DNA from: a virus | Taxonomy: Duplodnaviria; Heunggongvirae; Uroviricota; Caudoviricetes | Reading direction: 5' to 3' (one strand) | Length of the DNA: 4,288 nt | IMG/VR virus record: IMGVR_UViG_3300015184_000048 | Span: 1 to 4,288 of that record | Shown: in pieces, positions 457-726 of the stretch | Layout of the letters: the number at the start of each line of letters is the position of its first letter | Position numbering within the stretch: position 1 is the first letter of the stretch | The notes under the pieces: model-generated | The model's input: only the letters and a program-made list of their open reading frames with translations | What the model was told of the DNA's origin: nothing | Database searches by the model: none | Translations under genes and position numbers: made by a program

Positions 457-726
457 CTATTTCATCCCGCCAATATTTTCCCACCTCCCGTCAGCACGCA
501 GAATTTGCAGCGGTCTTACCACGCACTGTATCTGCTTTTTATCCGCATCCAGTATCACCACCTGCGTGATTACCCTGTCCTGCTCCGGGATAATGCCATT
601 CTCATCGGACTCCAGAATGCCTGCCGGTCCCAGTCGCAGCTGTGCTGTAAGTAACTCCCCGTTTTCACGGTCATCATGCTTTCCGCAACCGCACAGACGC
701 TGCATAAGTTTTTTTAGTATGTTCAT
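457..726 (-). CDS. Hypothetical 89-aa protein, translationally coupled to the 3' end of stf; function unknown (possible tail-fibre accessory/chaperone or cargo gene)
   Basis: Seen: ATG at 726-724 (minus) lies 1 nt after the stf TGA stop (730-728), giving TGAcATG. A strong Shine-Dalgarno AGGAG (737-733, minus) sits 6 nt upstream of the ATG, inside the stf 3' end. The ORF runs to TAG at 459-457 and is followed by the terminator. Product: MNILKKLMQRLCGCGKHDDRENGELLTAQLRLGPAGILESDENGIIPEQDRVITQVVILDADKKQIQCVVRPLQILRADGRWENIGGMK. No signal peptide or TM segment visible; I do not recognise the family. The track ORF 457-858 is this gene plus an unsupported N-terminal extension overlapping stf. Confidence 0.6.
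   Translation of the reverse strand: MNILKKLMQRLCGCGKHDDRENGELLTAQLRLGPAGILESDENGIIPEQDRVITQVVILDADKKQIQCVVRPLQILRADGRWENIGGMK

Follow-up and report, generated by a model that had tools for sequence, protein, structure and literature searches.

A free-standing Phage_fiber_C protein encoded directly after the side tail fibre gene of a lambdoid E. coli prophage

The stretch of DNA analysed here comprises positions 1 to 4,288 of IMG/VR virus record IMGVR_UViG_3300015184_000048 (4,288 nt; hereafter, "the window"), and corresponds to the right-hand end of a lambdoid prophage in an attaching-effacing E. coli. The minus strand carries an open reading frame (ORF) of 89 codons directly after stf, the gene for the side tail fibre (Stf). 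With a probability of roughly 0.55, this ORF is a genuine late gene of the lambdoid prophages of enterohaemorrhagic and enteropathogenic E. coli (EHEC/EPEC), and its product is a separate protein, paralogous to the knob (the PfC domain) at the C-terminus of the fibre, and a dispensable accessory of the fibre tip. The ORF had been singled out in a preliminary description made from the sequence of the window; the observation was partly confirmed, and the interpretation that accompanied it was partly supported. As an entity, the gene was already known and annotated and is not an orphan. What is added here is its behaviour as part of a cassette and the difference in selective constraint that separates the free PfC from the one borne by the fibre. 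The ORF is present in essentially every Shiga-toxin (Stx) phage whose fibre ends in PfC, and it marks the precise boundary where effector cargo joins the tail module. The role of a free fibre knob would help to explain how Stx and effector phages adsorb to O-antigen-bearing hosts and spread.

Family assignment and gene structure

The preliminary description could assign the ORF product to no family. This was not upheld. Residues 28-89 matched Pfam PF06820 (Phage_fiber_C, "PfC") over profile positions 1-64 of 64 (E = 8e-36; 122.7 bits, with a gathering threshold of 25 bits as the cut-off), and residues 1-89 matched 89 of the 89 positions of PHROG 576 ('tail fiber protein'; E = 6.4e-59). The RefSeq entry for the product, WP_052922750.1, bears the name 'phage tail fiber C-terminal domain-containing protein', and the same gene in the Stx2 phage Sp5 (ORF68) is described in PMC5155283. 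PF06820 was the sole Pfam match at E <= 1; the absence of a match to the tail-fibre assembly family Tfa (Caudo_TAP, PF02413) bears out the earlier statement that the ORF is not Tfa. NCBIfam, PADLOC and Rfam yielded no matches for the ORF, and sequence and profile searches of the PDB returned nothing credible.

The family description of PF06820 has the domain as a fibre C-terminus; the ORF, by contrast, is a stand-alone 89-residue protein with its own start. A PfC domain also ends Stf, and the two copies are 35% identical in protein and 53% identical in nucleotide sequence. Judged by these comparisons, the ORF and the C-terminal knob of the fibre are old paralogues that have diverged, and the ORF copy stands free. 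The features on which the analysis rests are as follows.

457..726, minus strand: the 89-codon ORF with its TAG stop (ATG at 724-726, TAG at 457-459); product MNILKKLMQRLCGCGKHDDRENGELLTAQLRLGPAGILESDENGIIPEQDRVITQVVILDADKKQIQCVVRPLQILRADGRWENIGGMK
460..645, minus strand: PfC (PF06820) domain of the ORF, residues 28-89, the strongly constrained part
646..726, minus strand: N-terminal 27 residues of the ORF, specific to the stand-alone protein (helix, C-G-C motif, linker)
709..715, minus strand: A7 run in ORF codons 4-7, the site of two frameshifted alleles in related loci
728..730, minus strand: TGA stop of stf, with the single base C (727) before the ORF ATG
733..737, minus strand: AGGAG Shine-Dalgarno (SD) sequence in the final stf codons, with a 6-nt spacer to the ORF ATG
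728..2041, minus strand: side tail fibre Stf, EPclA type, 437 residues (PfN, coiled coil, collagen Gly-X-Y repeats, PfC)
761..952, minus strand: PfC domain of Stf, residues 364-427, the paralogue of the ORF
416..442, both strands: symmetric (bidirectional) intrinsic terminator, AAAAACCGGAGYCCGGCTCCGGTTTTT, which closes the fibre-tip cassette
443-1351 and 979-1818, plus strand: long antisense ORFs (302 and 279 residues, respectively), opposite the ORF and the collagen-coding part of stf

The domain architecture of Stf is as described in PMC3368898. In the N-terminus of the ORF, a short helix is predicted at residues 3-11, followed by a conserved C-G-C motif (residues 12-14) and a variable linker (residues 17-27). 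No hydrophobic signal sequence was found in this segment (MNILKKLMQRLCGCGK; maximum nine-residue hydropathy 0.88), and a lipoprotein or secreted protein was ruled out by its hydrophilic character.

An AlphaFold2 monomer model of the ORF product, computed from a 24-sequence alignment, had a predicted local distance difference test (pLDDT) score of 49 and a predicted template-modelling score (pTM) of 0.30; no confident AlphaFold model was obtained for the fibre C-terminal domain either by the authors of a phi24B preprint (10.64898/2026.04.10.717836). An exhaustive profile search also weakly matched Big_7 and SprB Ig-like repeat proteins. These matches were multi-repeat, partial and at the level of a motif, and an Ig-like fold was not accepted for the ORF. 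A metagenome contig encodes a distant relative, a 565-residue fibre-like protein (P0233; L281 3505-5202) with four tandem repeats of ~80 residues, each of which ends in a PfC-like motif (VVVLDAD...LQVRRADGTW.EIPALKG) that is 47% identical to ORF residues 56-89. With a collagen region and another C-terminal domain after its four repeats, P0233 shows that PfC can be a modular unit within a fibre as well as its terminal cap.

In the preliminary description, the stf stop and the ORF start were said to overlap as TGAcATG. The two are adjacent, as claimed; they do not overlap, for one base (C, 727) lies between them, which places the ORF in the +1 frame relative to stf. The AGGAG sequence that had been reported inside the last stf codons is present, and its 6-nt spacer would be ideal for initiation at the ORF ATG. 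No RNA structure that would hide the SD sequence and thereby enforce coupling was found around the junction (z 0.25). The ORF was also correctly placed just inside a terminator: a hairpin and T-run lie within 15 nt of the ORF stop, with an A run on the other side. This terminator serves both the ORF and tccP2, the effector gene that converges on it. It was kept after the ORF in all related loci, podoviral phi24B included, and prophage-to-prophage homology breaks just beyond it. At the A7 run, two alleles in the set of loci sampled by the fibre PfC (L273 and L277) were changed exactly there; phi24B encodes the same residues without the run.

Length is no evidence for the ORF, because spurious antisense ORFs of ~300 codons occur in collagen-coding DNA, including the two that lie in the same region; the case for the gene therefore rests on comparison with other sequences. 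Both antisense ORFs are probably artefacts of the repetitive, GC-rich collagen-coding sequence. The phi24B equivalent of such an antisense ORF has been annotated as hypothetical protein vb_24B_37c.

Constraint and the fibre-tip cassette

Selection was gauged by the ratio of non-synonymous to synonymous differences per site (pN/pS), using pooled Nei-Gojobori estimates. A first estimate, from the 80 loci most similar in protein sequence, was biased and was replaced by a sample in which loci were chosen by the 22-nt junction, independently of the protein sequence of the ORF (129 distinct contexts). The 89-codon frame was intact in 122 of these 129. For the ORF as a whole, pS was 0.13 and pN was 0.024 (pN/pS 0.18); codons 1-27 had a pN/pS of 0.37, and the PfC part had one of 0.078. 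The PfC of Stf, at a pS similar to that of the ORF, gave a pN/pS of 0.43, and the last 85 stf codons at the same loci gave 0.44 (pS 0.14). Among non-singleton variant codons, synonymous and non-synonymous changes stood at 15:11 in the ORF PfC vs 15:44 in the Stf PfC (Fisher p 0.006). Variable ORF sites fell on the third codon position in 28 cases, the first in 17 and the second in 12, in a sample picked by protein similarity. The free PfC copy is held nearly constant while the fibre's own tip varies, and the non-synonymous load in the Stf PfC is compatible with diversifying selection on a receptor-binding tip. The earlier contention that this is a real gene tied to stf is upheld by the conserved SD sequence, start and 1-nt spacing, by purifying selection and by peptides of gp59, the 92%-identical product of phi24B.

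A second receptor-binding end downstream of the fibre gene is also a property of the template repeats of diversity-generating retroelements (DGRs) and of the invertible S-U segments of Mu and P1, and in the present locus the downstream copy is conserved and the in-gene copy varies. The ORF differs from them in its nucleotide identity to the in-gene copy, in having its own start, SD sequence and unique N-terminus, and in the lack of a reverse transcriptase or invertase gene in the window. A DGR template repeat was considered and rejected: besides the identity of 53% and the missing reverse transcriptase gene, 29 of 82 mismatches were at A in the ORF copy, i.e. there was no adenine bias.

The ORF region was found in 698 of 5426 complete E. 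coli genomes (about 13%), with a median of 12 copies per carrying genome and ~7,000 copies in total. Among 50,697 phage records, 296 held the ORF (88-98% identity), nearly all of them Stx phages; the Stf-type PfC was likewise found in 296 phage records with the same organism breakdown, and the ORF took its full stand-alone form in 293 of its 296. In IMG/VR loci picked by the fibre's PfC alone, an intact 89-codon ORF lay one base after the fibre gene in 70 of the 73 evaluable fibres. The junction, GGCAGAACAGGAGAATGAC followed directly by the ATG, was identical in 81 of 86 related loci.

The exhaustive profile search, which covered 1.84 billion proteins, gave 93 matches only. Outside Escherichia, the ORF was found only in Citrobacter rodentium, in a prophage remnant adjoining NleG (L197-L199 4479-5237). 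In that remnant, the fibre (161-166 residues) keeps PfN and PfC and has lost its collagen; a 78-residue version of the ORF follows, which shares 73% identity, has a deletion of four residues and is shorter at its N-terminus, and in L197 an NleG gene comes after it. A scan of genome contigs returned only E. albertii and one 725-nt contig labelled 'Xanthomonas pisi' (L003; NZ_JPLE01000138.1), whose copy is 92% identical to the E. coli gene. The latter is most likely a contamination of that assembly.

The same gene, at 89 residues and 92-97% identity, is Sp5 ORF68 of the E. coli O157:H7 Sakai Stx2 phage and gp59 of phi24B (ADN68460.1). Compared with phi24B gp59 (92% identity), the ORF has the same length and an identical junction (AGGAGAATGAC before the ATG) after a PfC-ended collagen-like fibre, and the same terminator follows. 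In the window, the gene comes after the 437-residue EPclA-type Stf of a long-tailed, lambda-like prophage and is followed by effector cargo (tccP2). In Sp5, phi24B and other short-tailed Stx phages, the podovirus VT2phi_272 among them, it comes after a 645-residue fibre in the middle of the podoviral tail module. The arrangement of fibre and ORF is independent of tail type.

Phage Stx2-86 has a phi24B-like podoviral backbone. Its fibre ends in a Peptidase_S74 intramolecular chaperone domain, the ORF is absent, and the same slot is occupied by a Gp38_N-type adhesin and the exclusion lipoprotein Cor:

17173-20252 of NC_008464 (L285): alternative tip cassette of Stx2-86, with a collagen fibre and Peptidase_S74, a Gp38_N adhesin, Cor and a 48-residue ORF

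Homology between phi24B and Stx2-86 is lost within the collagen region and picks up again ~100 nt ahead of the conserved tail gene that comes next. The Gp38-type adhesin and Cor were exchanged together with the tip on the same backbone; their families are unrelated to the ORF, and their roles are known or annotated. This swap places the ORF in an exchangeable fibre-tip cassette, and neither in the constant tail module nor in the effector cargo. The cassette consists of the collagen end, the PfC tip, the ORF and the terminator, and it is common to phages with the EPclA-type Stf and to those of the Sp5/phi24B gp61 type. The 93-residue gene that follows gp59 in phi24B, vb_24B_38, also lies within the segment swapped in Stx2-86; from gene order, it is probably Sp5 ORF69, deletion of which raised plaque counts.

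One of the two roles offered in the preliminary description was that of a small cargo protein. The distribution contradicts it: the ORF tracks the fibre tip and not effectors, it stands mid tail module in the short-tailed Stx phages, it is found in as many records as PfC-ended fibres are (296 vs 296), and it is absent where the tip has been exchanged.

Traces of the cassette's 3' end were also found beyond effector genes. A degenerate second copy of the ORF 3' end (about residues 58-89, with a 7-nt deletion), with the terminator, lies downstream of an NleG-like effector gene:

5025-5215 of L048: degenerate copy of the ORF 3' end (others in L030, L034, L035, L042, L049 and L076)

An effector cassette flanked by direct repeats of the ORF 3' end and terminator suggests that this segment is a recombination anchor for exchangeable effector loci. 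A further PfC ORF at the edge of effector cargo is P0251 (L282 4001-4411), a divergent, stand-alone PfC protein of 136 residues that adjoins NleG and SopA-like effector genes; no fibre gene was called upstream of it.

These repeats are among the grounds for viewing the ORF as a silent reservoir or relic, i.e. a spare fibre C-terminus kept for tip-changing recombination, whose protein, if made, has no role. Such a role was proposed for Sp5 ORF68 by Mondal et al. (PMC5155283), who wrote that it may be an intragenomic reservoir for fibre variation. The gene's non-essential status agrees with this proposal, as do rare chimeras in both directions: in P0060 (L200 4-291) a collagen Gly-X-Y region is joined directly to an ORF-type PfC, and P0171 combines the N-terminus of the ORF with a PfC and tail of the Stf type. 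The paralogues thus recombine occasionally. (Each chimera is known from one contig or very few, and may reflect either recombination or misassembly.) Nevertheless, we regard a silent reservoir as unlikely. The pN/pS of the PfC part shows selection on the protein, and a relic needs none of the ATG, SD sequence and 27-residue N-terminus, all of which are conserved. Fibres with an ORF-type PfC are almost never seen (full stand-alone form in all but three of the phage records; P0060 from a single contig), so selection cannot act on the ORF PfC as a fibre tip. At 53% nucleotide identity, the Stf PfC is too distant for homologous exchange to be frequent, and the phi24B virion proteome includes peptides of the orthologue.

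Expression, dispensability and possible roles

The preliminary description also proposed that the ORF could be a fibre chaperone. Such genes, as with lambda tfa, Mu U and T4 gp38, sit directly after the fibre gene, and the position and coupled translation of the ORF resemble theirs. Like lambda Tfa, the ORF product is small and encoded immediately after a side fibre; unlike it, the product is half the size, is homologous to the fibre tip, shows no sequence relationship to Tfa (no Caudo_TAP similarity) and is dispensable where the fibre is essential. The last point comes from Sp5, in which Mondal et al. (PMC5155283) tested 43 in-frame deletions on K-12 MG1655. Nine genes were essential, fibre ORF67 included; ORF68 was not and is listed among the non-essential late genes. 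The ORF is dispensable for plaque formation and lysogeny on K-12.

Biochemical work on the fibre was reported by Ghosh et al. in 2012 (PMC3368898), in a paper that does not discuss the small ORF. The full-length EPclA fibre trimerised in E. coli without any other phage protein, and the isolated EPclA PfC domain was a trimer and itself nucleated the refolding of the collagen helix. A Tfa-like chaperone, one that the collagen-like fibre requires for folding or trimerisation and then sheds, would fit the low abundance of the orthologue in virions. It is nonetheless highly doubtful: an obligatory chaperone is excluded by the published genetics and biochemistry. The ORF may have a milder role in the efficiency of fibre assembly.

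Expression data came from the supplementary virion proteome of the phi24B preprint (10.64898/2026.04.10.717836); a literature search by locus tag for expression data gave nothing useful. Two gp59-unique peptides, VITQVVILDADKK and ADGTWENIGGMK, had three peptide-spectrum matches (PSM) each, compared with 2267 PSM for fibre gp61. Per residue, gp59 amounted to ~2% of the fibre, so on these data it is not a stoichiometric virion component. These peptides show that the orthologue, which is 92% identical to the ORF product, is translated, and traces of it accompany purified virions. Peptides of the ORF that are suited to targeted mass spectrometry are VITQVVILDADK and ADGR/TWENIGGMK.

The search database of the phi24B authors held hypothetical gp61-gp59 fusions, labelled 'Spike or just gp59?', and these raise another explanation: a +1 frameshift at the stf stop could fuse Stf to the ORF and give some fibres two tandem PfC domains. 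The ORF is indeed in frame +1 to stf, with no stop over the 44 codons that precede its ATG, and the UGA-C stop, close behind an SD-like AGGAG, bears a superficial likeness to the prfB site. The details of the site speak against recoding. For the P-site codon GAA, re-pairing on AAU in the +1 frame is impossible, the SD sequence abuts the codon vs 3 nt upstream in prfB, and the ORF has its own well-spaced SD sequence and ATG. No frameshift signal was found according to PMC5155283. No junction or N-terminal peptides were present in the part of the phi24B proteome examined, where the fusion entry exceeded the gp61 entry solely in gel band 23 (25 vs 24); since bands run from high to low mass, this excess weakly hints at a free species of ~10 kDa. 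Recoding is accordingly regarded as extremely improbable.

The preferred reading, an accessory of the fibre tip, can be given a tentative physical form by comparison with the PfC of EPclA/EPclB fibres (PF06820; PMC3368898). The two belong to the same family over the 64-position profile, and both are all-beta with ~62 residues. The fibre version trimerises on its own and acts as the nucleus of collagen-helix formation. The ORF version is 35% identical, has no collagen attached, carries the 27-residue N-terminus (helix and C-G-C) and is much more conserved. Because the isolated fibre PfC trimerises autonomously, the ORF product is probably trimeric as well, and the 10-kDa polypeptide would form a homotrimeric, all-beta knob of ~30 kDa. 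The short helix and Cys-Gly-Cys motif would precede this knob at the junction that the collagen helix occupies in the fibre. The product would most likely be a non-stoichiometric accessory of the fibre tip. It might act by transient capping of, or docking on, PfC-ended fibres, or it might supply a second binding activity during adsorption; any benefit would be expected to appear on natural, O-antigen-bearing hosts rather than on K-12. We infer that the product is not a folding chaperone, an effector (effector cargo being excluded by the synteny) or a silent spare part.

Several points weigh against this reading. The first concerns intactness: the ORF was disrupted in 7 of 121 contexts vs 29 of 121 for stf, the rate per nucleotide was about equal, and intactness alone is therefore uninformative on any special protection of the ORF. 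Second, strong conservation of the ORF beside a variable fibre PfC is not the pattern expected of a partner that co-evolves with the tip. Third, gp59 occurs at a trace level that equals that of proteins treated as contaminants by the phi24B authors (10.64898/2026.04.10.717836). Fourth, the dispensability of Sp5 ORF68 is read from its entry in the list of non-essential genes in PMC5155283. Finally, the AlphaFold2 model, with its pLDDT of 49, is unusable and the structure searches gave no solved relative, so both trimer formation and any contact with the fibre tip stand as predictions.

Some of the same observations can be accommodated by a late decoy or exclusion factor. Cor and Llp, which act in exclusion, adjoin receptor-binding genes. 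In an analogous manner, a free PfC knob, freed at lysis or acting on the envelope, would mask a receptor and so keep progeny from adsorbing to debris or to cells already infected. In favour of this are the Cor superinfection-exclusion lipoprotein in the same slot of Stx2-86, the probable nature of the product as a free trimeric knob, its sub-stoichiometric presence in virions, its dispensability for plaque formation, and a conservation such as would be expected from binding to a conserved ligand. Against it, the ORF has neither a signal peptide nor a lipobox with a hydrophobic core (Cor of Stx2-86 begins MYKCVLAVLILLSGC, unlike the hydrophilic ORF N-terminus), and hence the product has no route to the outer membrane until the cell lyses. 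The ORF strand showed no sigma-70-like promoter, which makes expression in the lysogen unlikely. An identity of 35% to the fibre PfC does not imply a shared receptor, and PADLOC, as noted, gave no match. A decoy of this type is, like the reservoir, unlikely.

A broader and more speculative proposal has a slim chance of being correct. It holds that two diverged PfC knobs divide the work: the fused one evolves fast, and the free one, near-invariant and either released at lysis or carried in traces, binds a conserved host-surface ligand so as to mask receptors on debris or to prime adsorption; in addition, the ORF 3' end and terminator act as a recombination anchor for type III effector cassettes. 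If true, the product would act as a soluble decoy or helper of viral origin that binds receptors, and among tailed phages with collagen-like fibres no such role has so far been described.

Other features of the window

The remaining genes of the window are as follows.

2798-4288, minus strand: C-terminal part of tail tip protein J
2106-2729, minus strand: Lom
1-330, plus strand: 3' end of tccP2 (Tir-cytoskeleton coupling protein), with two 47-residue EspF-type proline-rich repeats

A RefSeq chromosome stretch that is 100% identical carries the same annotation, and the ORF product there is WP_052922750.1. In this genome, tccP2 is present as two pseudogene fragments adjoining an IS66 element and a tRNA-Ser. 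One other RefSeq genome is also 100% identical over positions 400-800.

To be expressed, stf and the ORF presumably need late transcription that is antiterminated. A terminator-like hairpin lies at 2059-2078 (minus strand), between lom and the stf start (GCCCGCCGG...GGTGGGC, then a T-run).

Residue 36 of the ORF (619-621, minus strand) is Gly in the window and Asp in almost all other alleles (LGPAD to LGPAG). The Gly36 allele occurred once in the 86-locus sample, in the RefSeq genome identical to the window (L002).

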